From an uncultured Myxococcales bacterium (GTDB lineage Bacteria > Myxococcota_A > UBA9160 > SZUA-336), in NCBI GenBank assembly GCA_964566375.1, contig CAZMKX010000002.1, forward strand, positions 1 to 40,471: DNA of 40,471 nucleotides, in the 5' to 3' direction. Position numbers and translations under genes: made by a program. The notes beneath the pieces were generated by a model. The model saw only the letters and a program-made list of their open reading frames with translations. It was not told the origin of the DNA and did no database searches. Numbering within the stretch: position 1 is the stretch's first letter; every line of letters begins with the position of its first letter. Of the stretch, positions 12,605 to 36,579 are shown piece by piece.

Positions 12605-12979
12605 TCGCGCTCCCTTCCGCGGCCGCCTCGAAGAGTCCCGTCTTCGAGCGATCGCGCGCCGGGACTTTAGCCGAGCCGGGCGTGCGGCGGCATCGGCCGC
12701 CGCCTCGCCAGGCCCGCGCGTCGGATTTCGCCGTCGGGAGGGATCGCCTATCGTCGGAGCTGCGGCCCGCCGAGGGGGAGGCTCGCGTGCGAGCGGTCGG
12801 CCGCGCGAGCCGCGGCAGGTCACCGGCAAGCGATTCTCGCGCGCGCCGTCTCCTCTGGCGGTTCTCGAGACCCCCGAACGCGAATTTCGGGATTGCGGGC
12901 GACTTGTGGGGCGCGTCACGGTGCCCTGCGCGATCGAACCCGATGTTACGGCCAGTCGTCGCGATGGGAGTGCACACGC

Positions 12980-17115: not shown

Positions 17116-17125
17116 ACACCCCGCT

Positions 17126-19676: not shown

Positions 19677-21187
19677 GGACCGAGTACGTAGACGTCGCCG
19701 TCGCGACGCCAGCGGCCGATCGGCGGTACGGACTGCGGGCGATCCCGGTCCCAGGGGATGAGCACGACCGGGTGGCCCGAAGCGACGGCGTCGCGGATGA
19801 AGGCATCGACCCCGGCCTCCTGCCACCAGGTGCTCTTGGGATCGTCCCAGCCCCGCAGCAGCGCGCCGTAGCGCACCGCGTAGTGACCCATCCAGTCCTC
19901 GAACACGATCCGACCGTGCGGCCCCGCCAGCTCGAGGACGTGGCTGCTCATCTGCTCGGCCGATCCATCGGCGACCGCCCACGGGGTCAGCAGATAGACG
20001 TAGTCGTCGCGGTACGGCTTGTTGCGAACGAAGCCCGCCAGCAGATGACTTCCGCGCGCCAGAGCGGTGGCTGCGGCGTAGGTCACGGGCGTCGCGACGA
20101 GGAGCAGCACCGCCGACACAGCCAGCCAGCGCCGAGGCGGGCGCGACTGCAACAGCGCCCACGCGCCGATGCCGCCGAAGACCGAGAGCATCACGTACAT
20201 CGGCAGGAAGAACGTGTACTGGTCGACGACGTCGTAGCGGAGCGCGAATGCGCTCTGCACCCCGAGAATTCCGAACAGCGCCCAGCGCACGACGGGCAGC
20301 ACGCCGAGGTCCCGCGCGCGAACCATGCCGAGGACGGCGGCCGGCAGCAGCAGGTTCGGGAAATTCAGCAGCGGATAGCCGACGTCGACGAGGATCGCGC
20401 GCCGCGAGATGCCGAAGCCCAGCACCTCGTTGTGCCACATCGTGCCGAAGAGCGCCGAGCGAACCGTGCCCGCGAGATCGCCGCTCGCCACGAGCTGGTT
20501 GACGACCAGTGCCGCGTACGGTGCGGCGCCCGCGAGCCAGAGGACGGTCGCGACGGCGAAATCGCCGAGCGTGATCCTGCGCTCGCGAGCCTCCTGGATC
20601 CCGACCGTGATCAGAACCAGCGCCGTCAGGCCGGACTGCATGTCGTTGGCGACGCCCAGCCCGTTCAGGAGACACGCGAGCCAGAGCGCGCGCCGATCCC
20701 CGCTCCGGCCGTAGCTCGAGAGGCTCCAGCAGACGGCCGCCAGCAGCGCCGCGCCGACGGTGTAGACCTCGGTGATCGTCGAGAGCCGCCAGAACGTATG
20801 CGCCAGCGCGAGCGAGCCGGCCGCGAAGAGCGCCGCGGCGGGCCGGCGGGTGAGGCTCCGGACGCAGCCGAAGACGTTCGCCACCGTCAGCGCGCCGCAC
20901 AGCGAGCTCACCAGCGTGATCGCGTAGGGCTGCGGGCCAGCGATGGCCACGGCCGCCCGGCCGAGCCAGTGGTGCAGGGGATGGGTGAGCGCGAGTCCCA
21001 GGTTTCCAAGCAGGTCCCCGGTCGCGATCTTGAACATGAAGTGGCTCGAGTCCTGCCACTGCACCCCGCGACCCGCCGTCGCGGCATACAACGCGAATGC
21101 GCCGAGCGCGACGCCGAGCCACGCCGGGAAAGCGGCCCCACCTGCGACGGGGTGACTCGGCTCGATCGACTCGGGTGCGGTCGCCAC
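19673..21187 (-). CDS. GT-C fold membrane glycosyltransferase, DUF2723/TMEM260-like
   Basis: About 11 hydrophobic helices plus a ~110-aa soluble C-terminal domain. After TM1 comes GVQWQDSSHFMFKIATGDLLGNLGLALTHPLHHWL, resembling (from memory) the DUF2723 N-terminal signature (..WDSGEF..HPPGYPL). Start set at the GTG at 21187, 4 nt after AGGAG. The maximal ORF starts with TTG at 21226. Confidence 0.65.
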   Translation of the reverse strand: MATAPESIEPSHPVAGGAAFPAWLGVALGAFALYAATAGRGVQWQDSSHFMFKIATGDLLGNLGLALTHPLHHWLGRAAVAIAGPQPYAITLVSSLCGALTVANVFGCVRSLTRRPAAALFAAGSLALAHTFWRLSTITEVYTVGAALLAAVCWSLSSYGRSGDRRALWLACLLNGLGVANDMQSGLTALVLITVGIQEARERRITLGDFAVATVLWLAGAAPYAALVVNQLVASGDLAGTVRSALFGTMWHNEVLGFGISRRAILVDVGYPLLNFPNLLLPAAVLGMVRARDLGVLPVVRWALFGILGVQSAFALRYDVVDQYTFFLPMYVMLSVFGGIGAWALLQSRPPRRWLAVSAVLLLVATPVTYAAATALARGSHLLAGFVRNKPYRDDYVYLLTPWAVADGSAEQMSSHVLELAGPHGRIVFEDWMGHYAVRYGALLRGWDDPKSTWWQEAGVDAFIRDAVASGHPVVLIPWDRDRPQSVPPIGRWRRDGDVYVLGP

Positions 21188-21517
21188 GTGTCTCCTGTCC
21201 GTACACGACGCGTCGCCCGGTCGCAACGTCGGCGAGGGAGCCGGTACGGTGACCCGGCTCGGCTGAGCGGCTCGCGGTCTATCGGTCGGGCTTCCGGGGC
21301 GGTTGATCGCGGGCCGGCGGGAGATCTGCTGCAGCCCGGCCGGGTTCTCGCGGTGGCGCGGGCGGGTCGGTCCGGAGCTGCACCCTGCTGATCAAAACCT
21401 CTGCTTGAGATCGTCGACGCAAGAGCCGATCCTGTGCACGTTAGCCCCCTTTGCCCACCGGCCGTCGGAGAGAGTCTCCCAAGCGCGCCCGGCGGAGCTC
21501 GAACGGAGCCGCTCGAG

Positions 21518-23303: not shown

Positions 23304-24557
23304 ATGGATCCGTTCGCGACATTCCCGCCGTGCCGGCTCTGCGGCGCGCCGCTTCGCGCGGTCGCGGTCGACCTGGGCATGTCCCCGCTCTGCCAGACCC
23401 GCGTCCTGCCCGAGCAGCTCGAGCAGAGCGAGGAGTTCTTCCCGCTGCGCGTGCGCGTCTGCGAGCGCTGCTTCCTGGTGCAGCTCCCGGCGGTGGTGAC
23501 GCCCGAGAAGCTCTTCACCGAATCGCCCTATCCCTACTTCTCGTCGTACGTGGACGCGCTCGTCGAGGCGGGCCGGCGCTACTGCGAGGCCGTAAGCGCG
23601 CGCTTCGGCCTGGGCGCGAAGAGCCGCGTGGTCGAGATCGCGAGCAACGACGGCTACCTGCTGCAGCACTTCGTCGCCCGCGGGATCCCGGCGCTGGGCA
23701 TCGAGCCCGCCGAGAACGTCGCCGCGGCCGCGATCGCGCGCGGCGTGCCGACGCTCTCGCGCTTCTTCGGCGTCGAGACGGCGCGCTTCGTCGCCGCGCG
23801 CGACGGTCGCGCCGACCTGATCATCGGGAACAACGTCTTCGCGCACGTCCCGGACCTGAACGACTTCATCGCGGGGATGAAGATCCTGCTCGCGCCCGGC
23901 GGCGTGATCACGCTCGAGTTCCCGCACCTGCTCCGGCTGCTCGAGGGAAATCAGTTCGACACGATCTACCACGAGCACTTCTCGTACTTCGGCTACGCCA
24001 CGGCCGAGCGCGCGCTCGCGGCCCACGGCCTCATGGTCTTCGACGTCGACGAGATCGCGAACCACGGCGGCTCGCTGCGCATCTGGGCCCGCCACGCCGA
24101 CGACGCGAGCAAGCCGGTCGCGGCCGCGACGCGCGCGCTGCTCGAACGCGAGCGAGCGGCCGGCCTGCTCGGTCTCGAGCGCTACCGCGCATTCTCCGCG
24201 CAGGTCCACACCACCAAGAACGCGCTGCTCTCCGCGCTGATCGAGCTCAAGCGCGCGGGCAAACGGATCGCCGCGTACGGCGCCGCGGGAAAGAGCGTGA
24301 CGCTCCTGAACTACTGCGGCGTCCGCACCGACTTCGTCGACTACTGCGTGGACCGCAATCCGGTCAAGCAGGGAACGTATCTCGCGGGCGTGCGCATCCC
24401 CATCTACGCACCGGAGAAGATCGCGGAGACGCGGCCGGACTACCTGCTGATCCTGCCGTGGAACCTGCGAGACGAGGTGATCCGCTACACCGCGGGAATC
24501 CGCGAATGGGGCGGGCGCTGGATCGTGCCGATCCCGACGCTCGAGATCGTGACGTAG
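23304..24557 (+). CDS. NDP-sugar C-methyltransferase family (TylCIII-like; Zn-ribbon + class I MT + C-terminal C-MT domain)
   Basis: N-terminal Cys pairs CRLCG..CERC. MT core VVEIASNDGYLL..GIEPA..LIIGNNVFAHVPD. C-terminal IAAYGAAGKSVTLLNYCG..VDRNPVKQGTYLAGVRIPI..PDYLLILPWNL is typical of the sugar C-methyltransferase C-terminal domain. The ATG follows the PIG-L stop directly. Confidence 0.8.
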   Translation: MDPFATFPPCRLCGAPLRAVAVDLGMSPLCQTRVLPEQLEQSEEFFPLRVRVCERCFLVQLPAVVTPEKLFTESPYPYFSSYVDALVEAGRRYCEAVSARFGLGAKSRVVEIASNDGYLLQHFVARGIPALGIEPAENVAAAAIARGVPTLSRFFGVETARFVAARDGRADLIIGNNVFAHVPDLNDFIAGMKILLAPGGVITLEFPHLLRLLEGNQFDTIYHEHFSYFGYATAERALAAHGLMVFDVDEIANHGGSLRIWARHADDASKPVAAATRALLERERAAGLLGLERYRAFSAQVHTTKNALLSALIELKRAGKRIAAYGAAGKSVTLLNYCGVRTDFVDYCVDRNPVKQGTYLAGVRIPIYAPEKIAETRPDYLLILPWNLRDEVIRYTAGIREWGGRWIVPIPTLEIVT

Positions 24558-24565
24558 GGGGCGCG

Positions 24566-25678
24566 ATGAATTCTGCACGAGACGTGATCGAAGCCGACCT
24601 CGCAGGGCTGCGCGCGGCGCTCGCGACGGAGCTTCCGGCGCTCGCAGGCAAGCACGTCCTGATCGTCGGCGGCGCCGGCTTCCTCGGCTACTACCTGGTG
24701 CAGACCCTGACCTCCGCGAACCGCGCGGGTGCCGTCCCGACACCGATTCGCGTCACCGTCTGGGACAGCTTCGCGCGCGGCGAGCCCGCGTGGCTCTCGG
24801 ATCTCGCGCGCGAAGGGTCGGTCACGCTGACCCGGCGCGACGTGACGCATCCGATCGGCGCCGACGTTCCCGACTTCGACTACGTCGTGCACGCGGGCTC
24901 GATCGCCTCGCCGACCTACTACAAGCGCTTTCCGATCGAGACGATGGACGCGAACGTGAACGGGCTGCGGAACCTGCTCGAGTACGCGCGCCGCCAGGCG
25001 GATCGCGGCCGGCCGGTCGCGGGCTTCCTGTTCTTCTCGTCGAGCGAGATCTACGGCGATCCGCCGCCCGAGGCGATCCCCACGCCCGAGACGTACCGGG
25101 GCTTCGTGTCCTGCACGGGGCCGCGCGCGTGCTACGACGAGTCCAAGCGCTTCGGCGAGACGCTCTGCGTGAACTTCGCGCAAGCGCACGGCGTGCGCGT
25201 CGCGATGGCCCGGCCGTTCAACAACATCGGCCCCGGGCTGAAGATCAGCGATCGGCGCGTCCTGCCCGACTTCGCACGCGACGTCCTCGCCGGCCGCCCG
25301 ATCCAGATGCTGTCGGACGGCGGACCGCGCCGCACCTACTGCTACGTCGGCGACGCGATCGCGGGCTACTACAAGATCCTCGTCCGCGGCCGGCCGGGTG
25401 AGCCCTACAACGTCGGTGTCGAGTCCCCCGAGATCTCGGTCGCCGAGCTCGCCGAGCGCGTCGCGCGGATCGCCGGGTCGCTCTTCGGATACAAGGAGAA
25501 GGTCGTCCGCGCGAAGTCCGAGGACGCGACCTATCTCGAGGACAACCCCGTCCGCCGCTGTCCCACGATCGCCAAGGCGCGGACCGAGCTCGGCTACGCG
25601 CCGCGCATCGAGCTCGACGACGCGCTCCGGCGTTCGCTGCTCTGGTACCGCGACAACCCGAGCGCCGGGGACCAGTGA
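24566..25678 (+). CDS. Extended SDR, UDP-glucuronate decarboxylase (UXS)/ArnA-C-terminal-like NAD-dependent epimerase/dehydratase
   Basis: VLIVGGAGFLGYYL (GxxGxxG), FFSSSEIYGDP and CYDESKRFGE (YxxxK), as in the UXS family (STSEVYGDP / YDEGKR). Only the last 370 codons of the 811-aa track ORF are credible. ATG at 24566. Confidence 0.8.
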   Translation: MNSARDVIEADLAGLRAALATELPALAGKHVLIVGGAGFLGYYLVQTLTSANRAGAVPTPIRVTVWDSFARGEPAWLSDLAREGSVTLTRRDVTHPIGADVPDFDYVVHAGSIASPTYYKRFPIETMDANVNGLRNLLEYARRQADRGRPVAGFLFFSSSEIYGDPPPEAIPTPETYRGFVSCTGPRACYDESKRFGETLCVNFAQAHGVRVAMARPFNNIGPGLKISDRRVLPDFARDVLAGRPIQMLSDGGPRRTYCYVGDAIAGYYKILVRGRPGEPYNVGVESPEISVAELAERVARIAGSLFGYKEKVVRAKSEDATYLEDNPVRRCPTIAKARTELGYAPRIELDDALRRSLLWYRDNPSAGDQ

Positions 25679-27012
25679 TGCGGGTCTCGATCGTCGGCTC
25701 CGGCTACGTGGGGCTCGTGACCGGTGCGTGTCTCGCAGAGAAGGGTCACGACGTGATCTGCGTCGACCTCGACGCGGAGCGCGTCGCGCAGATCAACCGC
25801 GGCGCGTCGCCGATCTTCGAGCGCGGGCTGGACGAGCTCCTGGCGCGACACGCGGGCAAGCGACTCGTCGCGACGACCGATCTGCGCCGCGCCGTCGCCG
25901 ACAGCGAGCTGTCGCTGATCGCGGTCGGCACGCCGTTCGACGGTCAGGCGATCGACCTGCGACTGGTCGAGCGCGCGACGCGCGAGCTCGGCCTGGCGAT
26001 CCGCGCGAAGGCCGCCGACCACGTCGTGGTGGTGAAGAGCACCGTCGTACCGGGAACCACCGAGCGCATCGTTCGACCGTTGCTCGAGACCGCGGCCGGA
26101 CGGAGGGTCGGCGACGGGCTGGGCCTGGGCGTGAACCCTGAATTCCTCACCGAGGGCGAGGCCGTCGGGGACTTCATGGAGCCCGACCGGATCGTGATCG
26201 GCGCGAGCGACGCACGCACGCGCGAGGCGCTCGTGCGGCTGTACGCGGAGTTCCCGGGCGCCGAGACGGTGCTGACCAACAACTCCACCGCCGAGATGAT
26301 CAAGTACGCATCGAACGCGCTGCTCGCGACGCTGATCTCGTTCTCCAACGAGCTCGCCAATCTCGGCGCGGCCATCGGCGACATCGACACCGTCGACGTG
26401 AGCCGGGGCCTGCGCGCGAGCCGCTATCTCGCCTGCCCTCTCCCCGATGGCGGCACGAGCGTCGCGCCGATCTTCTCGTTCCTGCTCGCCGGCTGCGGCT
26501 TCGGCGGCAGCTGTCTGCCGAAGGACGTGGCGGCGCTGCACGCCGAGGGCCGCCGCCGCGGCCTGCCGATGGCGGTGCTCGAGGCGGTCCTGCGCGTGAA
26601 CGCGAGCCAGCCCGGCGAGGTGATCCGCAGGCTCGAGAAGCACTTCCCGGACCTCGCGGGGAAGCGCATCTCGATCCTCGGGCTGTCGTTCCGCCCCGAC
26701 ACCGACGACCTGCGCGAATCGCCCGCCATCCCGATCGTGCGCGAGCTCGCGGCGCGCGGTGCGCGGCTCGCTGGCTACGACCCGGCCGCGGCGGAGCACG
26801 CGCGCGCTCTGTTCGGGGACACACTCGAGATTCGGGGGTCGCTGGAGGCGGCGCTGCGCGACTGTGACGCGGCGGTCCTGGTCACGCGCTGGCGCGAGTT
26901 CGAGGCGGTGCCGGACCTCGTCGCACGCCTGAACCCCGGCTTGCTCGTCGTCGACGGCCGCAGGATGCTGCCCAAGGAGCGCCTCGCGCGCTACGAGGGA
27001 ATCGGCGTGTGA
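25678..27012 (+). CDS. ugd: UDP-glucose/GDP-mannose dehydrogenase family (UDP-glucose 6-dehydrogenase-like)
   Basis: VSIVGSGYVGLVTGACLAEKGHDVICVDLD, NPEFLTEG and the catalytic Cys in GFGGSCLPKDV. The ATG overlaps the upstream stop (TGATG). An in-frame GTG at 25675 is the alternative. Confidence 0.9.
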   Translation: MRVSIVGSGYVGLVTGACLAEKGHDVICVDLDAERVAQINRGASPIFERGLDELLARHAGKRLVATTDLRRAVADSELSLIAVGTPFDGQAIDLRLVERATRELGLAIRAKAADHVVVVKSTVVPGTTERIVRPLLETAAGRRVGDGLGLGVNPEFLTEGEAVGDFMEPDRIVIGASDARTREALVRLYAEFPGAETVLTNNSTAEMIKYASNALLATLISFSNELANLGAAIGDIDTVDVSRGLRASRYLACPLPDGGTSVAPIFSFLLAGCGFGGSCLPKDVAALHAEGRRRGLPMAVLEAVLRVNASQPGEVIRRLEKHFPDLAGKRISILGLSFRPDTDDLRESPAIPIVRELAARGARLAGYDPAAAEHARALFGDTLEIRGSLEAALRDCDAAVLVTRWREFEAVPDLVARLNPGLLVVDGRRMLPKERLARYEGIGV

Positions 27013-28322
27013 GACCGTTCAGCCTCGAGGATCTCGCTGCGCGACTCGGCATCGGCGACCCGGGCGACGAGATGCACGCGCTGATCCGCGAGCTGTATCC
27101 GCTCCCACGCAGCGTGACCGGGAACGGGGTACGCGACACGCTGCGCATCCTCGGCCGGAGTCTTCCGCTCGCGGTGCGGGAGACGCCGAGCGGCACTCCC
27201 GTGCTCGACTGGGTCGTTCCTCCCGAGTGGAACGTGCGCGAGGCGTGGCTCAAGGGCCCGGACGGCGCGATCGTCGCAGACCTGCGCAGGTCGAGCCTTC
27301 ACGTGCTGGGCTACAGCGTACCGGTGCGGGCGAAGCTGTCGCGCGCCGAGCTCGAACCGCACCTGCACTCGCTGCCCGAGCACCCGGACTGGATTCCGTA
27401 CCGGAGCTCCGTCTATCGCGAGGACTGGGGCTTCTGCCTGCCGCACCGGCAACGGGTCGCGCTACCCGACGGTGAGTACGAGGCATTCATCGACGCGGCG
27501 CTCGGACCGGGAAGCCTCACCTACGGCGAGGTGGTGCTGCCGGGTACGAGCGCCGACGAGATCCTGCTCTCCAGCCACGTGTGTCATCCCGCGCTATGCA
27601 ACGACAATCTCTCGGGCATCTCGCTTCTGTCACTGCTCGGGCGCTATCTGGAACGCGTCGGTCACCGGCACACGTTCCGGCTCTTGTTCGCGCCCGTCAC
27701 GGTCGGCGCGATCACCTGGCTCGCGCAGAACGAGAAGAACCTCGCGCGCGTCCGGCACGGGCTGGTCGTGACACTGGTGGGCGACACGGGTCCGATCACG
27801 TACAAGCGAAGCCGTCGCGGCAACGCCGTGATCGACCGGGCCTTTGCCCACGTCCTGTCCCACCGGGGTCCGCACCGGCTTCGCGACTTCGATCCGTTCG
27901 GATACGATGAGCGGCAGTTCTGCTCTCCGGGCTTCGATCTGCCGATGGGTTGCCTGATGCGCACACCGCACGCCGAGTTCCCCGAGTACCACACCTCGGC
28001 CGACGACCTCGACTTCGTGAAGCCGCACGCGCTGCGGGACTCGCTCGGCGCCGTGCTCGGCGTTCTCGACGTCCTCGAGCACGACGGCCGCTACCGGAAC
28101 CTGCAGCCGAAGGGCGAGCCACAGCTCGGCCGCCGTGGCGTGCTCGGCAGCGCGCCGTGGGGAGGCGAGCTGCAGCGCGCGATGGCGTGGGTGCTGAGCT
28201 TCTCCGACGGCCGCTTCAGCCTGCTCGAGATCGCCGAGCGCGCGCGGCTGCCCTTCACGTCGATCCACGAAGCCTCGAGCGCGCTCGTCGCACACGGCCT
28301 GCTGCGACGGGTCGAAGGGTGA
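27009..28322 (+). CDS. DUF4910 / aminopeptidase-like domain protein (COG4310-type) with C-terminal winged-helix-like tail
   Basis: LYPLPRSVTGNGVRDTL.., VPPEWNV, SSHVCHPALCNDNLSGI, FAPVTVGAITWL, YDERQF and EYHTSADD. This motif pattern matches the polysaccharide-locus-associated aminopeptidase-like family. The start overlaps the ugd stop. Confidence 0.7.
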   Translation: MRPFSLEDLAARLGIGDPGDEMHALIRELYPLPRSVTGNGVRDTLRILGRSLPLAVRETPSGTPVLDWVVPPEWNVREAWLKGPDGAIVADLRRSSLHVLGYSVPVRAKLSRAELEPHLHSLPEHPDWIPYRSSVYREDWGFCLPHRQRVALPDGEYEAFIDAALGPGSLTYGEVVLPGTSADEILLSSHVCHPALCNDNLSGISLLSLLGRYLERVGHRHTFRLLFAPVTVGAITWLAQNEKNLARVRHGLVVTLVGDTGPITYKRSRRGNAVIDRAFAHVLSHRGPHRLRDFDPFGYDERQFCSPGFDLPMGCLMRTPHAEFPEYHTSADDLDFVKPHALRDSLGAVLGVLDVLEHDGRYRNLQPKGEPQLGRRGVLGSAPWGGELQRAMAWVLSFSDGRFSLLEIAERARLPFTSIHEASSALVAHGLLRRVEG

Positions 28323-28329
28323 CCTCGCG

Positions 28330-29130
28330 ATGAAGGTCGTGCTGTTCTGCGGCGGCCTGGGTCTGCGCTTCCGCGGCGTCGCGGAGAACGTGCCCAAGCC
28401 GATGGTTCCGATCGGCTACCGGCCCGTGCTCTGGCACGTGATGAAGTACTACGCCCATCACGGGCACACCGACTTCATCCTCTGCCTGGGCTACAAGGCC
28501 GACGCGATCAAGAGCTTCTTCCTGAACTACGACGAAGCGATCTCGAACGACTTCGTGCTCTCCGGCGGCGACAAGGGCATCGAGCTCCTGCACCGCGACA
28601 TCGACAAGTGGCGAATCACGTTCTGCGACACCGGGCTCACGACCAGCATCGGCCAGCGCCTGCGCGCGGTGCGCAAGCACCTCGAAGGCGAGGAGTACTT
28701 TCTCGCGAACTACTCGGACGGCTTGACCGACCTGCCGCTGCACGACTTCAGCCGGCGATTCCTGGCCAGCGGAAAGACCGCGGCGTTCGCGTTGGTCCGA
28801 CCGACGCACAGCTTCCACGTCGTGACGATGCGCGAGAAGGACCTGGTCGCCGACATCCGCGACCTCGCCGTCTCGGACATCCGCATCAACGGCGGCTACT
28901 TCATGTTCCGCCACGACGTCTTCGACTACATCCGGCCGAACGAAGAGCTCGTCCACGAGCCGTTCCGCCGGCTGATCGACGCCAATCAGCTCGTCGCCTA
29001 CGAGCACCCGGGATTCTGGACGTGCATGGACACGTTCAAGGACCAGCAGCGCCTCGAGGACTTGTTCGGCTCCGGGCACGCGCCCTGGGAGCTCTGGCGC
29101 GAGCGCTCTCCGGACGACGACGGAACGTGA
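28330..29130 (+). CDS. rfbF: Glucose-1-phosphate cytidylyltransferase
   Basis: MKVVLFCGGLGLRFR..NVPKPMVPIGYRPVLWHVMKYYAHHGHTDFILCLGYK..FLNY..NGGYFMF..GFWTCMDTFKD. The RfbF signature runs over the full length, 266 aa. Confidence 0.9.
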   Translation: MKVVLFCGGLGLRFRGVAENVPKPMVPIGYRPVLWHVMKYYAHHGHTDFILCLGYKADAIKSFFLNYDEAISNDFVLSGGDKGIELLHRDIDKWRITFCDTGLTTSIGQRLRAVRKHLEGEEYFLANYSDGLTDLPLHDFSRRFLASGKTAAFALVRPTHSFHVVTMREKDLVADIRDLAVSDIRINGGYFMFRHDVFDYIRPNEELVHEPFRRLIDANQLVAYEHPGFWTCMDTFKDQQRLEDLFGSGHAPWELWRERSPDDDGT

Positions 29131-29140
29131 CGGCGGAGAA

Positions 29141-30052
29141 ATGGGCGTTTCGATCGTCATTCCCTGCTACAACGGCGGTCGCTACGTCCGCGAGGCGGTC
29201 GAGTGCGCGCTCCGCCAGACGATCCCGCCCGAGCAGGTGATCGTCGTCGACGACGGGTCGAAGGACGATTCGGTTCGCGTGGCGTCCTCGGTCGCGGGTG
29301 TGCGGGTGATCTCGCAGGAGAATCGGGGCGCCAGCCTGGCCCGGAACCGCGGGCTCGCCGAGGCGACGGGCGAGTACGTGATCTTCACCGACCACGACGA
29401 TCGACTTCTGCCCGACGCGATCGAGATCGGCCTTCGCGCCTTCGCGCAGCACCCCGAGAGCGGCTTCGTTTACGGCTTCCACCGCTCGATCGACATGCTC
29501 GGCCGTCCCGCGCCCGACATCGTCCGTCGCCACGTGGCGGACGCGAGCTACCGCCGCACGCTCGAGGGCGACACCCTGGTTCCGCCCGGCTGCGCGATGT
29601 TCCGGCGCGAGGCGCTCGACGCGGTCGGCGGCTTCCACGACGGGACCTTCCCTACCGAGGACTACGATCTCTACCTGCGCGTCAGCCGCTCGGCGCCGAT
29701 CTTCTGCCACAACCAGGTGGTGATCGAGTATCGCTGGCACGGCGAGAACGCGAGCGGTGTGAGTCCGAGCCGTGGACTCCGGTCCGCGATCCGGACTCTG
29801 GAACGGCAGCGCGACTTCGTGCGGGGAAACGCCGAGCTCGAGCGCGCGCTCGAGACGGGCAAGCGCCACTGGGGTCACGTGTTCGGCCCGGGCGTGGCGT
29901 TCGAGGCGGTCCAGCAGCTTCGCGACGGCGAGCTCGGCACTTCCCTGGCGACGCTCGCGCTCGCGCTGCGCTGGCATCCGCGCGGCCTCCTGGACGTCGC
30001 GATTCATTTCGCGCGCCGCGCCGGGGGAGCCCGGCCCGCGAGCGATCCCTAG
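29141..30052 (+). CDS. Glycosyltransferase family 2
   Basis: VSIVIPCYNGGRYVREAVECALRQT, VVDDGSKDDS, RGASLARNRG and FTDHDD (DxD). Confidence 0.9.
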   Translation: MGVSIVIPCYNGGRYVREAVECALRQTIPPEQVIVVDDGSKDDSVRVASSVAGVRVISQENRGASLARNRGLAEATGEYVIFTDHDDRLLPDAIEIGLRAFAQHPESGFVYGFHRSIDMLGRPAPDIVRRHVADASYRRTLEGDTLVPPGCAMFRREALDAVGGFHDGTFPTEDYDLYLRVSRSAPIFCHNQVVIEYRWHGENASGVSPSRGLRSAIRTLERQRDFVRGNAELERALETGKRHWGHVFGPGVAFEAVQQLRDGELGTSLATLALALRWHPRGLLDVAIHFARRAGGARPASDP

Positions 30053-31164
30053 AAGCGCGCACCGCAGGCATCGGCGGGGATCATTGCGCGCTCGACGAGC
30101 CGCGCCGCGATCGCTTGCGCGACGAAGCGGTTTCCCGCGGAGGAATAGTGCCCGCCCGGGCCGCGCTCGAGCGTCGCGGGCTGGAAGAGTGCGCGCCGCT
30201 CCGGGTCGGGCACGCGGCTCATCTCGTCGGAGAGATCCGCGAACGCCAGACCGTCGGCGCTGACGCGCGCGAGCGCCGCCGCGCCGAAATCCGGGAGCGG
30301 CGCGAGCGAATCGGGCCGCGCGGCCTCGAGGTGCGGAAGGTGCACGAGCAGCAGCTCCGTCCCGCGCTTCGCGGTGACCGCGTGCAGCGCGCGGAAGACC
30401 GCCTCGTCGACGCGCTCCGCGCCCGCGTCGTCGAGGCGTTGGCCGGGCACGGGCGCGGGCTTCGCGAAGTGCGCCCGGATGGCGCGGGGCAGCTCGACGA
30501 CCCGGAGTGTCTCGAGCAGGGACAGGTTCTGGGTGACTGCCGGAAGCAGATACGGCGCGCGCGGAACCGGAACGTTGGACGGGACCAGCACGCCGTCGAC
30601 GATCTCGAGGACGGGCTTCCCGTAGCCGGCCATGCGGTCCATCTGCACGCGCTTCAGGTCGTCCTCGATGAATGCCAGGACCAGCACCTGGTGCTCGAAG
30701 GCGGTGCCGTCGCGCAGGTACCAGAGATAGCTCTGGTCGATGCCGTAGCCCGACTGGCCCATGTTGGGAACTTCGAGCCCCGGACAGAGCCGCTCGAGCC
30801 AGGCCGGCCAGGAATCCGCGTCCCCGACGTCGTAGCCGAGGGTGAACGAGTCGCCGAGCGCGACGACGCGGGTCTTGCCCGGGGGCACCGAGTCCGCGAG
30901 CTCCGACGCGTTCCGGAAGCCGCGCGCGTTGGTCGTGACGTCGAGTCCGGGACCGAAGACGTCCCTTGCGACCGTGCTCTTTGCGTTCGACCAACCGAGC
31001 TCCGGGTCGTAGACGGTGTGCGCGCGCTCCGGAAGCGGCCTCCAGTAGTGCATGCGCGCCCACCAGACGAAGTACGCCAGGCTCGCCGCGCCTTCGACCA
31101 GCGCGAAGACGAGCCCCACCGCGAGCAGGCCCGAGAGCACGCGGCGGACGCGGGGCAGCTTCAT
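30049..31164 (-). CDS. Membrane-anchored SGNH-like protein, AlgJ/AlgX-like (SGNH-6)
   Basis: ATG at 31164. Single TM (LSGLLAVGLVFALVEGAASLAYFVWW). Contains TNARGFRNA and VVALGDSFTLGYD (block I). Block III is degenerate (FIEDDLKRV). Block V is PGGHYSSAGN. Confidence 0.7.
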   Translation of the reverse strand: MKLPRVRRVLSGLLAVGLVFALVEGAASLAYFVWWARMHYWRPLPERAHTVYDPELGWSNAKSTVARDVFGPGLDVTTNARGFRNASELADSVPPGKTRVVALGDSFTLGYDVGDADSWPAWLERLCPGLEVPNMGQSGYGIDQSYLWYLRDGTAFEHQVLVLAFIEDDLKRVQMDRMAGYGKPVLEIVDGVLVPSNVPVPRAPYLLPAVTQNLSLLETLRVVELPRAIRAHFAKPAPVPGQRLDDAGAERVDEAVFRALHAVTAKRGTELLLVHLPHLEAARPDSLAPLPDFGAAALARVSADGLAFADLSDEMSRVPDPERRALFQPATLERGPGGHYSSAGNRFVAQAIAARLVERAMIPADACGARF

Positions 31165-31314: not shown

Positions 31315-32205
31315 ATGAAGCGCCGCTACGTCGTCATTACGCCCACGCGCGACGAGGAGACGACCGTCGAACGCACGATCCGGTCGATGCTCGCGCAAAC
31401 GGTGCCGCCGGAACGGTGGGTGATCGTGAACGACGGCTCGACGGATCGGACGCGCGAGATCGTCGCGCGCCACCTCGAGGAGGCGCCCTGGATGCGCCTC
31501 GTCGACCGCGCCGATCGCGGCTTTCGCGCGCTCGGCGGCGGTGTCGTGCAGGCCTTCGACGAAGGGCTCGCCCAGGTGGGGACGGATTGGGACTTCGTCG
31601 TCAAGCTCGACGCGGATCTCGAGTTCGCGCCCGACTACTTCGAGCGCATGCTCCGCCACTTCGACGCGAATCCGAAGCTCGGCATGGCGAGCGGCAAGAC
31701 CTTCCTCGTCAAGGACGGCGTGAAGTCGATCGAGTACTGCCACGACGAGCACGTGCGCGGTCCGGCGAAGATGTACTCCGCGGCGTGCTTCCGCGCGATC
31801 GGCGGGCTCGAGGCCGTGCGCGGTTGGGACATGATCGACGAGACCAAGGCGCAGATGGCGGGCTTCGAGACGCGCAGCTTTCTCGAGGACGAGATCATCC
31901 ACCTGCGCCCGATCGACGGCCGGCAGGCGAACGTGCTGCGCAGCCGGTACGAGATGGGTCGGCTGTACTGGTACCTCGGCTACTACTGGCTGTACCACCT
32001 GGTGCGCGCGGCGCGCAGCACGCTGCAGGACTATCCGCGCCCGCTGGGCGGTCTGATGCTCCTGGCCGGCTACCTCGCCGCGGCCTTGTCGCGTGCGCCG
32101 CGATACGACGCGCGCTACGTCGCCTTCGTTCAGGAGCGACAGCGCCGCCGGCTCAGCCTCGCGCATCTCCGCGACTTCGTGCAGGCCACCGCCGCCCGTC
32201 GCTAG
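31315..32205 (+). CDS. Glycosyltransferase family 2 (with C-terminal membrane-associated segment)
   Basis: YVVITPTRDEETTVERTIRSMLAQT, VNDGSTDRT, KLDADLEF (DxD). C-terminal hydrophobic stretch LYWYLGYYWLYHL..LGGLMLLAGYLAAAL. Confidence 0.85.
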   Translation: MKRRYVVITPTRDEETTVERTIRSMLAQTVPPERWVIVNDGSTDRTREIVARHLEEAPWMRLVDRADRGFRALGGGVVQAFDEGLAQVGTDWDFVVKLDADLEFAPDYFERMLRHFDANPKLGMASGKTFLVKDGVKSIEYCHDEHVRGPAKMYSAACFRAIGGLEAVRGWDMIDETKAQMAGFETRSFLEDEIIHLRPIDGRQANVLRSRYEMGRLYWYLGYYWLYHLVRAARSTLQDYPRPLGGLMLLAGYLAAALSRAPRYDARYVAFVQERQRRRLSLAHLRDFVQATAARR

Positions 32206-32445: not shown

Positions 32446-33777
32446 TTGAGCCCGGCTCGGCAGACGCTTTCGGGCTGGGGGCGCTTCCCCGTGGTCGAGG
32501 GTCACGAGCGTGCGTCCGAAGACCTGCTTCGCGTCGCGCGTGGAAGCGCGCTCACGCGCGGGCTCGGGCGTTCCTACGGCGACAGCTCGCTGCCTTCTCG
32601 CGCCGACGCGCGTCTCGCGGGCTCCCGGCTCGCCGATCGGATCCTCTCCTTCGACCCCGAGAGCGCCATCCTCCGCGCCGAGGCGGGCCTTCCCCTCTCG
32701 GCGCTGAACCGCTTCGCGTTCGAGCGCGGCTTCGCGCCGCCGGTCTCGCCCGGCACACACTTCGTGACGCTCGGCGGAATGGTGGCCTCGGACGTCCACG
32801 GCAAGAACCACCACGTCGCCGGCTGCATCGGAGAGCACGTGCGCGCGCTGCGCATGCTCGTCGCCGACGGGCGGGTGCTCGAGGTGAGCGAGGCGTGTGA
32901 GCCGGAGCTGTTTCGCGCGACGCTCGGTGGCATGGGCCTGACGGGCCACATCCTCGAGGTCGAGCTCCGACTCGAGCGCGTTCCGTCCGCGTGGATCTAC
33001 TGCGAGAGCGAGCCCGTGCGCGATCTCGACGCGCTCGTCGGGACGCTTCGCGAAGCCGGCCGCGCATGGCCCTACACCGTCGCGTGGGCGGACGCCTCTC
33101 GCGCGCGGGGAGCGCTGGGACGCGGCTTCGTGACGAAGGCTCGCTGGGCGAGCGCAGACGAGGCTCCGCGTGCGACGCCCGTCGTGCGCGAGCGGCTCGG
33201 GGTTCCCTTCACGATGCCCGACTGGCTGATCGGCCGGTGGAGCGTGCGCAGCTTCAACGTCGCCTGGCAGCTGCTGCACGCGCGCCGGACGCGCGGCATC
33301 GTGCACCCGCAGACGTTCTTCTATCCGCTCGACGCGATCCGCGACTGGAATCGCCTGTACGGACCGTCGGGCTTCACGCAGTACCAGTGCGTGCTTCCGC
33401 TCGATCGCGAGCCCCGCGCCTACGCGCACCTGTTCGAGACGTTCGCGCGTCGCTGCGGCGCGTCCCCGGTGACGGTGATCAAGGACTGCGGGCCCGAGGG
33501 CAAGGGCGTGCTCTCGTTTCCGCGCCCGGGGATCACGATCGCGCTCGACGTGCCGATGCGCGGCGCCGGAACGCAACGGCTCGTCGACACCCTGAACGAG
33601 ATCACGATCGGGGCTGGCGGCCGGATCTACCTGGCGAAGGACGCGCTCACGCGACCCGAGCACTTCGCCGCGATGGAGCCGCGTCTGCCCCTCTTCCAGG
33701 AGATCCGCCGCAAGTGGGACCCGGACGGCGTGCTGCGCAGCGCGCAGTCGGTGCGGCTCTTCGGAGACACACCGTGA
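32446..33777 (+). CDS. dprE1: DprE1-like FAD-dependent polyprenyl-phospho-ribose 2'-oxidase
   Basis: Collinear motif matches to M. tuberculosis DprE1 (recalled sequence): LSGWGR, RGLGRSYGD, PGTHFVTLGGMVASDVHGKNHHVAG, ELFRATLGGMGLTGHI, FFYPLDAIRDWNRLYGPSGFTQYQCVLP, LSFPRPG, GGRIYLAKD, RRKWDP. TTG start at 32446. Confidence 0.85.
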   Translation: MSPARQTLSGWGRFPVVEGHERASEDLLRVARGSALTRGLGRSYGDSSLPSRADARLAGSRLADRILSFDPESAILRAEAGLPLSALNRFAFERGFAPPVSPGTHFVTLGGMVASDVHGKNHHVAGCIGEHVRALRMLVADGRVLEVSEACEPELFRATLGGMGLTGHILEVELRLERVPSAWIYCESEPVRDLDALVGTLREAGRAWPYTVAWADASRARGALGRGFVTKARWASADEAPRATPVVRERLGVPFTMPDWLIGRWSVRSFNVAWQLLHARRTRGIVHPQTFFYPLDAIRDWNRLYGPSGFTQYQCVLPLDREPRAYAHLFETFARRCGASPVTVIKDCGPEGKGVLSFPRPGITIALDVPMRGAGTQRLVDTLNEITIGAGGRIYLAKDALTRPEHFAAMEPRLPLFQEIRRKWDPDGVLRSAQSVRLFGDTP

Positions 33778-34511
33778 AGGTGGTCGTGCTCGGTGCGACG
33801 AAAGGCATGGGCCGCGCGCTCGCACGACGACTGGCGTCGCGCGGGGATGCGCTGTTCCTGCTCGGCCGAGACGAAGCCGAGCTCGCGCGCAGCGCGAGCG
33901 AGCTCGAGGTCCTCGGTGCGCCGAAGCCCGTGGGCTACGGCGTGGCGGATCTGGGCGCGCCGGAAGGCTTCGCGCGCGCGCTCGACGAGGCCGACGCCGC
34001 GCTCGAGCGCTTCGACGCCGTGATCGTGACGGCGGGTGACTTCGCGAGCCAGGAAGTGCTCGAGTCGGACGCCGGCCGCCTTCGCCGCCTGCTCGAGATC
34101 GACTACACCCACACCGTGCTGTTCTGCGAGGAGGCGCGAAAGCGCCTGATGGCGTGCGGCGGCGGAACGCTCTGCGTCTTCTCGTCGGTCGCGGGCGACC
34201 GCGCGCGCAAGCCGGTGATCCTGTACGGCGCGGCCAAGGCGGGTCTCTCGTACTATCTCGAAGGCCTCGATCACAAGTTCCGCTCCGCGGGACTGCGCAC
34301 CGTGACCGTGAAGCCCGGCTTCGTGCGCACGGGGATGACCGCCGGTCTGCAGCCGCCGCCGTTCGCGGGCGAGCCCGATGAGGTCGCGCGGCGCGTGCTG
34401 CGCGCGATCGACCGCGGCGCGCCGGTCGTGTACGCACCGCCGATCTGGGCGCTCGTCATGCTCGTGATCCGCGCGCTGCCGCGCGCCGTGATGCGACGGA
34501 TCGGGTTCTGA
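33774..34511 (+). CDS. dprE2: DprE2-like short-chain reductase
   Basis: The GTG start overlaps the dprE1-like stop (GTGA). VVLGATKGMGRALA (Rossmann), SSVAGDR..YGAAKAGL (S..YxxxK). The C-terminal tail VVYAPPIWALVMLVIRALPRAVMRRIGF parallels the DprE2 tail [28 protein letters not shown]. Only the last 245 codons of the 506-aa track ORF are credible. Confidence 0.8.
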   Translation: MKVVVLGATKGMGRALARRLASRGDALFLLGRDEAELARSASELEVLGAPKPVGYGVADLGAPEGFARALDEADAALERFDAVIVTAGDFASQEVLESDAGRLRRLLEIDYTHTVLFCEEARKRLMACGGGTLCVFSSVAGDRARKPVILYGAAKAGLSYYLEGLDHKFRSAGLRTVTVKPGFVRTGMTAGLQPPPFAGEPDEVARRVLRAIDRGAPVVYAPPIWALVMLVIRALPRAVMRRIGF

Positions 34512-34513
34512 GC

Positions 34514-35383
34514 GTGGTGACGCTTGCGCGCGATCTGTTCCTGCTCGCGAGGCCACGAGACTGGCTGAAGGGCGTCTTCGTGCTTCTGCCGGTGCCGTTC
34601 GCGCTCGCGACCGGCGCGCACCTGGAGCCTCTGCCCTTCGCGCTGGGACTTCTCGGCTTCTCGCTCGCGACCTCCGCGGTCTACACGCTGAACGACGTCG
34701 TCGACGTGGAGCTCGACCGCGCGCACCCGCGCAAGCGCGCGCGGCCCGTCGCAAGCGGCCGCGTCTCGCGGACCGCGGCGCTCGGCTTCGGGCTGGCGCT
34801 GGTCGCGCTCGGCACCGCCTGCGTGGCGGCCTCGGCGCGACCGACGGCGCTCGGGATCCTGGCGGCCTACCTCGTGCTCAACGTCTTCTATTCGTCGATC
34901 GGAAAGGCGATCCCCCTGCTCGACGTCTTCCTGCTCTCGTCCTTCTACGTGCTTCGGGTGCTGCTCGGCTGCGCGCTCCTGTCGGTGACCGCGTCGATCT
35001 GGCTCCTGCTCTGCTCCGCGTCCCTCTCGCTGTTCCTGGCGCTGGGCAAGCGGCGCGGTGAGCTCGGCGACGGGCTCGACCACCGTCAGCGGCCGAGCCT
35101 GGCCGGCTACGACCTCGCCTTCCTCGACCAGTCACTCGCGGTGATGGCCGCGGTCACCCTCACCTCCTACGCGCTCTACGCGGTCGAGACGGACGTGCTG
35201 GTGCCGGGACGCGAGTTCGCCTCGGTTCCCTTCGTGGTCTTCGGCGTTCTCGAGTGGCTGCGACAGGTGTACGTTCCCGGTCGCGGCGCCTCGCCCGTCG
35301 ATCTGCTCGCGAAGTCGCCGGCGCTGCTCGCCTGCGGCCTGGGGTGGGCGCTCGTGACGGTGTGGAGCGTCGGGCTGTTCTGA
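34514..35383 (+). CDS. UbiA-fold polyprenyl-phosphate phosphoribosyltransferase (Rv3806c-like)
   Basis: ARPRDWLKGVFVLLP, YTLNDVVDVELDRAHPRKRARPVASG (NDxxDxxxD + KRxRP, as in decaprenyl-phosphate 5-phosphoribosyltransferase), GKRRGEL. About 8 TM helices. The GTG start is 2 nt after the dprE2-like stop. Confidence 0.8.
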   Translation: MVTLARDLFLLARPRDWLKGVFVLLPVPFALATGAHLEPLPFALGLLGFSLATSAVYTLNDVVDVELDRAHPRKRARPVASGRVSRTAALGFGLALVALGTACVAASARPTALGILAAYLVLNVFYSSIGKAIPLLDVFLLSSFYVLRVLLGCALLSVTASIWLLLCSASLSLFLALGKRRGELGDGLDHRQRPSLAGYDLAFLDQSLAVMAAVTLTSYALYAVETDVLVPGREFASVPFVVFGVLEWLRQVYVPGRGASPVDLLAKSPALLACGLGWALVTVWSVGLF

Positions 35384-35391
35384 GTCCCGGT

Positions 35392-36579
35392 TCAGACTCC
35401 GCGCGTCGCGACGCGCGCCAGGTGATCGATCCTGCGCCGGAACTCGGTCTCGAAGTCACGCTCGCGCGCGAAGGCGAGCGCCTGGCGGGACAGCGTGGCG
35501 AGCCGCTCGCGGTCCGCGTCGAGCGCCCGGATCGCACCCGCGAGCGCACGATGATCGCCGATCCCCACCGATACACCGGAGGGTGTCATGCCGAGCAACC
35601 CCGCGAATGCCTCGTTCGCGTAGCCGGCGATCGGCACGCCGCAGGCGAACGTCTCCAGATACGTACAGGACGGATCGCCTTGCGGGTGGCAGCAGACGAA
35701 CAGATCGGCCTGTGTCGAGACGAACGGCACGAGCTCGGTCTCGAAGTCGAGCACGCCGCGGAGCTTCACGCGCTCGCCCAGGCCCTCCCGCTCGATGCCC
35801 TGCGCCAGCTCGCGCTCCAGCGGGCCACCGCCGCAGATCGAGAGCTCGAAGTCGCAGCCCTGCGCCGCCAGCTCGCGCGCGACGCGCAGCAGGTGATCGG
35901 CGCCCTTCATCCTGTTGAGGCGCCCGCTGAACACCAGGCGCAGGCGCCGCCGGGTGCGAAGCTCCTCGAGGCGGCGCTCGAGTGCCGCCTCCGCGAGCAT
36001 GAGCGAACGCGGCGTGCGCGTGTCGAAGAAGAGCAGCGGATCGGGCGAGAGCGAGCGATACGCGTGCCAGGTCGGCGTGCCGTTGCACTGGATCCCCTGC
36101 GCCATCCGGATGGCGGCGCGCTGTCGCCGTTCCAGATTCCATTCCCAGAGCGCGCGGCGCGCGCGCAAGACCGGGTTCGTGGTCTCCGCAAAGATGATCT
36201 GGATGCGCGTGCGCAGCGTGTACTCGGTGCCGAAGACGACCGGAATCCGGAGTGCGCGACCGATCCCGCTCACGTGGTTCAACTGGTCGGAGATGCCGCC
36301 GAGCACGACCGCCGCGCCCTTCAGCGTCTGCGCGAGCTCGGCCGAGCCGAAAGGCATCACGTGCACGCCGAAGCCGATGCTCGCGGGGTCGATCTCGACG
36401 TTGTCGAGGTTCGGCGAGAGCTCGGGATCGGGCTCGAGCACGGTCTCGACCGGGCCTCGCCAGAGCTCCGCGTACTCCTGCATCCCCGTGACGAACTTGC
36501 GCGTCATCACGACGCGCCCGCCCGGACGCGGCGTCGCGCGCAGGTTCGCCAACACGATCAGCGCGCCGTCGGCTGCCAA
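35392..36579 (-). CDS. Glycosyltransferase family 4/1 (GT-B)
   Basis: Start set at the TTG at 36579, 4 nt after AGGAGG and 23 nt downstream of the purF stop. LVFSGRLNRMKGADHLL.., GGGPLEREL, DLFVCCHPQGDPSCTYLETFACGVPIAGY (EX7E-like). The 903-aa track ORF is this gene fused in frame to a shadow frame across purF. Confidence 0.75.
   Translation of the reverse strand: MAADGALIVLANLRATPRPGGRVVMTRKFVTGMQEYAELWRGPVETVLEPDPELSPNLDNVEIDPASIGFGVHVMPFGSAELAQTLKGAAVVLGGISDQLNHVSGIGRALRIPVVFGTEYTLRTRIQIIFAETTNPVLRARRALWEWNLERRQRAAIRMAQGIQCNGTPTWHAYRSLSPDPLLFFDTRTPRSLMLAEAALERRLEELRTRRRLRLVFSGRLNRMKGADHLLRVARELAAQGCDFELSICGGGPLERELAQGIEREGLGERVKLRGVLDFETELVPFVSTQADLFVCCHPQGDPSCTYLETFACGVPIAGYANEAFAGLLGMTPSGVSVGIGDHRALAGAIRALDADRERLATLSRQALAFARERDFETEFRRRIDHLARVATRGV

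Follow-up and report, generated by a model that had tools for sequence, protein, structure and literature searches.

The 40,471-nucleotide stretch of DNA analysed here (contig CAZMKX010000002.1; the window, meaning the stretch in its whole length) carries three translationally coupled genes for homologs of the mycobacterial enzymes DprE1, DprE2 and Rv3806c, within a glycan locus that spans positions 646-36579 in Pfam scans. We consider it probable that this locus encodes a three-component extracytoplasmic pentofuranose glycosylation pathway with a DprE1/DprE2 auxiliary epimerase, making a lipid-linked D-arabinofuranose (D-Araf) donor. This interpretation is carried by the homology of the three proteins, the conservation of their catalytic residues, the coupling of the genes, conserved synteny, the GT-C fold of a further protein of the locus, and the association of a homolog of that protein with a polyprenyl-phosphate phosphoribosyltransferase (PPPRS) in a relative. 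Sets of DprE1, DprE2 and PPPRS genes are common across bacteria and the type of pathway was described in 2024; the window is an ordinary further example, and its triad opens no new kind of biology. Modestly new are the probable host, a member of the Myxococcota, and the DUF2723/TMEM260-like GT-C protein. The setting described in an earlier note on this DNA, a Wzx/Wzy-type glycan locus beside purQLF, was recovered: a Wzx gene, a Wzy-like gene, purF, purL and the 3' end of purQ were all found.

The window probably stems from an uncultured bacterium of the Myxococcota, as its PurF and PurL and the closest labelled oxidase homologs suggest. PurF and PurL are 90% and 82% identical, respectively, to those of L083, whose P0086 cluster NCBI labels Myxococcota; PurF is 91-95% identical to its counterparts in L085 and L086, and PurL 90% in L086. 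Among the matches listed in the protein search, the labelled oxidase homologs nearest to that of the window are proteins of Myxococcota metagenome-assembled genomes (MAGs), at 62-65% identity. These MAG homologs, together with the 82-95% identity of purF/purL to L083, L085 and L086, rule out an origin in Corynebacteriales, the order in which, as the earlier note had pointed out, the triad would be nothing unusual.

The three coupled genes and the families of their products

The stop of the oxidase gene and the start of the short-chain dehydrogenase/reductase (SDR) gene overlap by 4 nt in a GTGA at 33774-33777 (context CACC GTGA AGG), and a gap of 2 nt at 34512-34513 separates the SDR gene from the UbiA gene (TGA GC GTG at 34509-34516). 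Both junctions were read in the DNA, in agreement with the coupling claimed earlier. The GC content at third codon positions (GC3) is 0.87-0.88 in all three frames and matches that of the window's other genes (overall GC 70%), which argues that the frames are real genes. The start of the SDR frame at GTG 33774 is conserved. At the N-terminus of the oxidase, LSGWGR (residues 8-13) does not vary among the 15 sequences of a family alignment; the TTG at 32446 is therefore most likely the true start, since it is the sole start that retains this motif. The automatic metagenome call of an identical oxidase (P0001) gives 428 aa, begins 15 codons downstream and loses LSGWGR. A 240-bp intergenic region precedes the TTG, and a promoter/terminator scan and an Rfam scan of the triad region found nothing.

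Judged by motifs, profiles and alignments, the oxidase is a true DprE1 homolog, a member of the family though not an NCBI-certified equivalog. Every motif by which it had been likened to Mycobacterium tuberculosis DprE1 was present in the translation, namely LSGWGR, RGLGRSYGD (38-46), DVHGKNHH (116-123), FYPLD..WNRLYGPSGFTQYQ (292-314), LSFPRPG and GGRIYLAKD. The NCBIfam DprE1 model NF053785 was its top match (339 bits, E 4e-101), with residues 8-438 aligned to 5-447 of 449 positions. The nine top PDB matches were all DprE1 (E about 1e-66, best 6e-67), and the next match followed at 8e-8. In the alignment to the 461-aa M. tuberculosis enzyme (28-437 against 40-457, 36% identity, E 6e-67), Y60, H132, K134, Q334, Q336, Y415 and the catalytic K418 (M. 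tuberculosis numbering) are identical, Lys418 corresponding to Lys398 of the window protein. The same alignment confirmed that the benzothiazinone-reactive Cys387 is replaced by alanine (Ala366).

The second protein is a classical SDR (Pfam adh_short) with the motifs GATKGMG, SSVAG and YGAAK, and its matches identify it as a true DprE2 homolog, again not a certified equivalog. Its best PDB match was DprE2, chain 21gq_C of the DprE1-DprE2 complex (E 2e-24, 89 bits, residues 3-243 against 12-252), compared with 65 bits for the next SDR, and the NCBIfam DprE2 model NF053786 ranked second with 142 bits (3-243 against 11-250 of 252). Hydropathy showed the hydrophobic C-terminal tail that the earlier note had likened to that of DprE2, and the alignment to DprE2 runs full-length and includes the tail.

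The third protein, with the motifs NDVVDVELD and KRARP, matched best to three NCBIfam models of decaprenyl-phosphate phosphoribosyltransferase (DPPRS) and to the HAD-UbiA model PRK08238; the PRK12324 models gave 163 and 156 bits. Its sole PDB matches were the Rv3806c entries 8j8j and 8j8k (E 7e-26). In the structure paper on Rv3806c, binding of Mg, pyrophosphate, ribose and the 5'-phosphate is assigned to specific residues (PMC10994848), and 10 of these 12 residues for phosphoribosyl pyrophosphate (PRPP) and Mg are identical in the alignment with the window protein. They include a cluster of basic residues (R22, K87, R90 and K143 of Rv3806c, here R13, K74, R77 and K131) and the binders of the ribose 5'-phosphate K28, Y70 and Y157 (here K19, Y57 and Y145), which prenyl-transferring UbiA enzymes do not share (PMC10994848). 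N60, D61, D64 and D68 of the NDxxDxxxD motif are present. Of the two that differ, Q135 is replaced by Asn, and K208 aligns with Pro in a gapped region. Motifs, NCBIfam, PDB and PRPP-site residues thus all bear out the phosphoribosyltransferase signature read earlier and mark the protein as a true Rv3806c homolog, if not a certified equivalog.

Pfam returned only generic families (FAD_binding_4 and a weak ALO match for the oxidase, adh_short and UbiA for the others), and the public annotation of homologs is likewise generic ('FAD-binding oxidoreductase', 'UbiA family prenyltransferase'). Such assignments would fit genes unrelated to glycans, with a VAO-type oxidase, a generic SDR and an aromatic prenyltransferase acting in a quinone or secondary-metabolite pathway. 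We regard this as highly improbable, and it was already disfavoured by the profiles: lactone-oxidase and other VAO models on the oxidase, and heme-O synthase and 4-hydroxybenzoate prenyltransferase models on the UbiA protein, reached at most 51 bits in NCBIfam, against 339 bits for DprE1 and 163 for DPPRS. In addition, the phosphoribose 5'-phosphate binders are kept, though not conserved across the wider UbiA superfamily, and the genes sit in a glycan locus. Lactone oxidase, heme-O synthase and quinone prenyltransferase were rejected as identities on these scores, and Pfam, NCBIfam and PDB searches placed the proteins outside the gulonolactone-oxidase-type and menaquinone/heme-O UbiA families that the earlier note had named as the alternative.

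A candidate glycosyltransferase and the proposed pathway

Glycosyltransferases of the GT-C fold use donors linked to polyprenyl phosphate. The earlier note had stated that no emb/aft-type genes lie near the triad, which is correct by sequence family, as no open reading frame (ORF) of the window matched Emb or Aft in Pfam/NCBIfam scans; it had overlooked a GT-C protein encoded in the same locus, at 19673-21226. This protein matched PMT_2 (E 8e-11) and TMEM260-like (E 5e-8) in Pfam. Its AlphaFold model (36 homologs; pLDDT 86.7, pTM 0.88) found ArnT as best PDB match (E 3e-7, TM 0.56), and further STT3, PglB, AftA, DPY19, ALG9 and EmbB; AftA (rank 13) and EmbB (rank 19) are distant neighbours only. 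The Asp after the first transmembrane (TM) segment, D59, is invariant in the alignment of homologs.

No homologs of the window's GT-C or Wzy-like protein were found near DprE1 genes in 84 loci (80 of them from GTDB genomes), so the link between GT-C and donor genes rests on a look-up from the GT-C side. Four contexts among 249 GT-C homologs were inspected, and a UbiA gene lies beside the GT-C gene in one of the four. There, in contig L088, a 61% identical homolog (P0124) is followed 8 bp downstream by a HAD-UbiA fusion (485 aa) with NDxxDxxxD/KRFRP motifs, an architecture like that of the experimentally proven Citrobacter ORF15. Beside P0124 are genes of the SGNH and Wzx-like types, together with one for a methyltransferase that shares 67% identity with that of the window. 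The second context, the contig of P0128, parallels the gene set of the window, with Wzy_C-like, methyltransferase, Wzx, GT-C, SGNH and SDR genes and then the start of an FAD oxidoreductase (Pfam DAO, weak); a homolog of the window's Wzx-like gene and an SGNH gene thus adjoin the GT-C homologs in both contigs. The third context (a Phycisphaerales MAG, L089) and the fourth (a short JGI contig) showed no UbiA gene nearby. Because P0124 directly precedes the HAD-UbiA fusion and the model resembles ArnT and AftA, the GT-C protein of the window is our best candidate for the arabinofuranosyltransferase, a candidacy by association.

In the pathway that we propose, the UbiA-fold PPPRS would join PRPP to undecaprenyl phosphate to give polyprenyl-P-ribose-5-P, an unlinked phosphatase would remove the 5'-phosphate, and the DprE1-like oxidase and DprE2-like SDR would invert C2' by oxidation and reduction, yielding polyprenyl-P-D-Araf. 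The carrier is presumably undecaprenyl rather than decaprenyl phosphate, since the host is probably a Gram-negative member of the Myxococcota. A flippase would move the donor to the periplasmic face, where a GT-C enzyme, most plausibly the one above, would transfer Araf onto the Wzx/Wzy glycan, a protein acceptor being less likely. In this scheme, the identity of lipid and sugar product is inferred, as is that of the flippase, the phosphatase and the acceptor. The best reading is that, as the earlier note had suggested, the glycosylation uses a lipid-linked pentofuranose delivered on the membrane's outer face.

With the same donor pathway, the acceptor might instead be a protein, the TMEM260/PMT-like GT-C enzyme O-glycosylating a secreted or surface protein with Araf in the manner of TfpW on pilins. 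This would suit the matches to TMEM260-like and PMT_2, families named for protein O-mannosyltransferases, and the oligosaccharyltransferases STT3 and PglB among the structural neighbours. TfpW itself is a GT-C enzyme that arabinosylates pilin, according to a preprint (bioRxiv 10.1101/2020.04.19.049825). The locus moreover encodes a secreted PKD-domain protein, and another lies near the GT-C homolog in L089; these two have no detectable homology, and PKD proteins were dropped as a shared acceptor. We consider a protein acceptor unlikely, as the top structural match ArnT modifies a glycolipid, the locus holds no pilin gene, and genes for polysaccharide (Wzx, Wzy_C-like, GT2, GT4, nucleotide-sugar enzymes, SGNH/AlgX-like) dominate it.

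Distribution, known systems and weighing of the pathway

Outside the Corynebacteriales, the earlier note knew the triad solely from rare cases. This did not hold up: the family is abundant and spread over many phyla and 65 plasmids, and a widespread pathway has been published (PMC11127046). At least 8000 proteins matched the oxidase at E<=1e-20 in the protein search, and at least 593 GTDB stretches (one genome per GTDB species) encode a relative. Among the matches listed were Myxococcota, Acidobacteriota, Planctomycetota, Binatota, Methylomirabilota, Bacteroidota, Bacillota, Alpha- and Gammaproteobacteria and Actinomycetota; 34 of the plasmids are from Rhizobium, and Salipiger pTPRO6 has the order UbiA-GtrA-FAD oxidoreductase-SDR. 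An SDR homolog accompanies the DprE1 gene in 75 of 84 loci and, among the loci listed, typically starts no more than a few hundred bases from it.

In a neighbour-joining tree, the window groups with L085, L086 and L083, and in all three the triad adjoins purF in the same gene order, with variable orientation and intervening genes. Between triad and purF lie a GT4 gene in the window and L085, carbamoyltransferase and GT2 genes in L086, and genes for a HAD protein and a 515-aa membrane protein in L083. The arrangement resembles a glycan region whose content varies while its place in the chromosome is conserved. PRPP is a substrate of PurF as well as of the UbiA enzyme, which may be coincidence. 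The triad occurs in the same order also in MAGs labelled Phycisphaerales (L002) and Spirochaetales (L015).

The closest described systems are those of Kelly, Duong, Nothof, Lowary & Whitfield (PNAS 2024), who report a 'widespread' three-component pathway of PPPRS, small flippase and GT-C (PMC11127046). It was shown experimentally for ribofuranose (Ribf), with ORF15-ORF14-ORF12 of Citrobacter youngae O1/O2 as prototype; candidate systems were found in Burkholderia, Rhizobium, Xanthomonas, Bacillus and a phage, and every Araf-containing example, Stenotrophomonas maltophilia and Rathayibacter among them, had DprE1/E2 homologs (PMC11127046). Like these systems, the window has a UbiA-fold PPPRS, a GT-C enzyme in the same glycan locus and DprE1/E2-type genes as the mark of Araf, and its triad lies within a polysaccharide cluster of a bacterium outside the Corynebacteriales. 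It differs in that its PPPRS lacks a fused HAD phosphatase and no separate phosphatase gene was found in the window, and in that it has a Wzx-like MOP protein and no 4-TM ArnE/EmrE-like or GtrA/SMR flippase. Its GT-C is DUF2723/TMEM260-like rather than EpsG-like GT136 with a carbohydrate-binding module and lies 11 kb from the donor genes, and the locus is of the Wzx/Wzy type instead of the ABC-transporter type.

With the mycobacterial pathway (Rv3806c, Rv3807c, Rv3790, Rv3791 and Rv3789, with Emb/Aft), the window shares three full-length homologs with conserved active sites and the adjacency of oxidase and reductase genes. Unlike that pathway, it has ubiA in the same operon as these two, only ~36% DprE1 identity, scores below the equivalog cut-offs, the exchanges Cys387 to Ala and Asn385 to Thr, and no Rv3807c-type PAP2, Rv3789-type GtrA or sequence-level Emb/Aft homolog. 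In alphaproteobacterial cassettes (Salipiger profundus pTPRO6, Rhizobium plasmids), the triad likewise forms one operon outside the Actinobacteria, with DprE1 homologs ~38-43% identical to the window oxidase; these cassettes include a GtrA-family flippase, the Salipiger UbiA protein is longer (491 aa), and the window SDR belongs to a different subgroup (38% identity over part of the length). Azorhizobium noeC/H/O genes, reportedly for Nod-factor arabinosylation, had been cited in the earlier note as another example of the triad. Group IV pilin arabinosylation in Pseudomonas aeruginosa relies, according to the preprint, on TfpW together with PPPRS, DprE1 and DprE2 homologs (bioRxiv 10.1101/2020.04.19.049825). 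On that description, both systems are Gram-negative and would use these homologs to supply polyprenyl-P-D-Araf to a periplasmic GT-C; the window, likened to it by description only, lacks a pilin gene and a TfpW-type protein and has a polysaccharide context.

Several results weigh against the proposed D-Araf pathway. None of the three proteins reaches the cut-off of its equivalog model (339 of 500 bits for the oxidase with NF053785, 142 of 250 for the SDR with NF053786, 163 and 156 of 234 and 207 for the UbiA protein), and the best NCBIfam model of the SDR is the uncharacterised PRK07102, whose 201 bits (own cut-off 267) exceed the score of the DprE2 model. Asn385 of DprE1 is Thr in the oxidase. 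The GT-C gene lies on the opposite strand, at the 11-kb distance given above. No PAP2, HAD, GtrA or SMR-like gene was found in the window by Pfam on all called ORFs and NCBIfam on a subset, and no small hydrophobic ORF with coding-type GC3 that could encode an ArnE-like flippase. Finally, of the 34 loci whose oxidase is at least 50% identical to the window's, just 4 (L001, L002, L015 and L083) have a UbiA gene within 10 kb, compared with 35 of 50 loci with an oxidase below 50%; linkage to a PPPRS is thus not general in this DprE1 subfamily. L085 and L086, fetched later and outside the 34-locus count, also carry the triad.

In the large clade with at least 50% identity, which contains the subclade of the window, L083, L085 and L086, the oxidase-SDR pair stands mostly alone amid housekeeping genes (polyA polymerase/CCA-like, 3-hydroxyacyl-CoA dehydrogenase, cysS), as in L082, L084, L087 and most of L003-L032, labelled mostly Myxococcota or Acidobacteriota. 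In M. tuberculosis, dprE1-dprE2 (Rv3790/Rv3791) are unlinked to ubiA (Rv3806c) as well, so the lone pairs do not contradict the assignment, although they leave room for a different substrate in this clade.

The profile and small-ORF scans agree with the earlier note that the window has no PAP2-type phosphatase or GtrA-like protein, and its description of the operon as 'complete' was overstated, given that neither a 5'-phosphatase nor a dedicated small flippase is present and relatives have a HAD gene beside the triad. In L083 (7758-9924, minus strand) and L002 (1670-5122, minus strand), genes for a HAD-family hydrolase and a polytopic membrane protein of ~515-541 aa are divergent from the triad. 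These are probably the phosphatase and the GT-C of those systems, the latter identity being unproven: the two membrane proteins had no Pfam match, and BLAST detected no similarity between them or between either and the GT-C of the window. A tblastn search of the window with two L083 proteins, the HAD protein and the membrane protein of 515 aa, gave no match. Dephosphorylation and flipping would then be left to unlinked genes, or the Wzx-like protein would flip the donor.

The product could also be other than arabinose, with ribofuranose, some other epimer or a derivative of a 2-keto-pentose being transferred, or the oxidase and reductase could have another lipid-linked sugar as substrate. In the Citrobacter system, the GT-C is promiscuous towards donors (PMC11127046), and the GT-C homolog in L088 has a PPPRS and no epimerase pair within 10 kb, so that the GT-C family may handle Ribf. 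The preference of the SDR for PRK07102, the differences from M. tuberculosis DprE1 at N385 and C387, and the many members of the DprE1 clade that sit among housekeeping genes with no UbiA gene nearby point in the same direction. We nevertheless think a non-arabinose product quite improbable: Lys418, H132, K134, Q334, Q336 and Y60 are conserved, and the pair is coupled to a PPPRS in the window and five other contigs. Moreover, distance from ubiA also characterises the M. tuberculosis genes, and Ala or Ser at position 387 is, we take it, a natural variant in some mycobacteria whose enzyme is active.

If D-Araf donor synthesis is correct, the class of periplasmic pentofuranose glycosylation systems, which was defined only recently, gains a probable example from the Myxococcota. 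Bacterial DUF2723/TMEM260-like GT-C proteins then become candidate pentofuranosyltransferases, so that this orphan family would have a function that can be tested. Contrary to what is commonly assumed, the survey shows that DprE1/DprE2/PPPRS homologs are not limited to Corynebacteriales plus a few curiosities. This is relevant to the spectrum of DprE1-directed drugs, the window enzyme having Ala at the benzothiazinone-reactive position, and to predicting D-Araf epitopes among environmental bacteria. A wider conjecture, which we rate as rather doubtful, is that this DprE1/SDR subfamily (Myxococcota, Acidobacteriota, Planctomycetota and others) and the DUF2723/TMEM260-like GT-C mark a widespread modification of envelope glycans or proteins by D-arabinofuranose or another 2'-epimerised lipid-linked sugar in Gram-negative phyla of soil and sediment, DUF2723 being a new family of polyprenyl-P-pentofuranose-dependent transferases.

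The rest of the glycan locus

Table 1. Features of the window discussed in the text, with positions counted from its first nucleotide.
Feature	Position	Strand	Details
DprE1-like FAD-dependent polyprenyl-phospho-ribofuranose 2'-oxidase (putative)	32446..33777	+	TTG start, 443 aa
DprE2-like SDR	33774..34511	+	GTG start, 245 aa
UbiA-fold PPPRS, Rv3806c-like	34514..35383	+	GTG start, 289 aa
GT-C fold glycosyltransferase (DUF2723/TMEM260-like, PMT_2), candidate donor user	19673..21226	-	Pfam, AlphaFold model, structural search
Wzx-like MOP-family flippase	3592..5286	+	Pfam Polysacc_synt_3 E 4e-45; NCBIfam MOP flippase 104 bits
Polytopic membrane protein, divergent Wzy_C (O-antigen polymerase/ligase)	2022..3452	-	ORF could extend to 3632
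GT2 glycosyltransferase directly upstream of triad	31315..32205	+	Pfam Glycos_transf_2 E 5e-20
GT4 glycosyltransferase between triad and purF, convergent with triad	35392..36579	-	Pfam Glycos_transf_1 E 3e-16
Membrane-anchored SGNH/GDSL protein, convergent with GT-C gene; one of six paralogs	18423..19676	+	Pfam Lipase_GDSL_2 E 1e-12
SGNH/GDSL paralog	646..2025	+	
SGNH/GDSL paralog	7711..9144	-	
SGNH/GDSL paralog	10497..11588	-	
SGNH/GDSL paralog	11588..12919	-	
SGNH/GDSL paralog	30049..31164	-	
SDR beside GMC gene	5273..6028	-	
GMC-family FAD oxidoreductase	6025..7707	-	
Secreted PKD-domain protein	12980..15028	+	
Protein with zinc-ribbon-like motifs	16018..17190	-	
Run of nucleotide-sugar genes	23304..29130	+	

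The Wzx-like gene is the only transporter-like gene found in the window. The Wzy-like protein had no direct Pfam match; it has 1883 homologs, whose alignments start at residue ~62, and 19 of 40 of these matched PF04932 Wzy_C (best E 2e-8). Hydropathy gives it ~8-10 TM segments. Pfam scans of the window found no initiating phosphoglycosyltransferase, Wzz, Wzc or Wza.

Glycosyltransferases of the locus comprise two GT4, two GT2 and one Glyco_trans_1_2 protein by Pfam, which also detected a PIG-L deacetylase and methyltransferases. The GT2 gene upstream of the triad has an 88% identical homolog at the same position in L085; it was considered as a constant partner of the DprE1/SDR pair, with polyprenyl-P-hexose synthase in mind, and dropped, being conserved solely in this closest relative. 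The GT4 protein at the other end of the triad is called as 395 aa on the identical contig L001 and is 78% identical to a protein encoded at the same place in L085.

Six divergent SGNH/GDSL (AlgX-like) paralogs lie within 31 kb, with mutual identities of 25-36% and, in most, a hydrophobic N-terminal segment. Such an expansion is unusual, and it suggests that several activities, for O-acyl modification or as esterases, act on the glycan. The run at 23304-29130 encodes a C-methyltransferase (Methyltransf_14/13), an NDP-sugar epimerase/dehydratase, a UDP-Glc/GDP-Man dehydrogenase, a DUF4910/DUF2172 aminopeptidase-like protein with a winged-helix domain and a nucleotidyltransferase. These predicted functions suggest that the repeat unit contains an unusual sugar, C-methylated or uncommon in some other way.

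A second SDR gene overlaps that of a GMC-family FAD oxidoreductase by 4 nt. By analogy to DprE1/DprE2, this could be a second oxidase/reductase pair for sugar epimerisation; the SDR and the FAD oxidoreductase start of the P0128 context likewise stand beside the module of the GT-C homolog. The protein at 16018-17190 had no Pfam match and a weak match to an IS1-family transposase (NF033558, E 8e-4); with its zinc-ribbon-like Cys/His motifs, it may be a mobile-element remnant in mid-locus. The PKD protein has a signal peptide, one PKD domain and a long Asn/Gly/Ser-rich stretch resembling a parallel beta-helix, features from which it may be a glycan-modifying or glycan-degrading enzyme.

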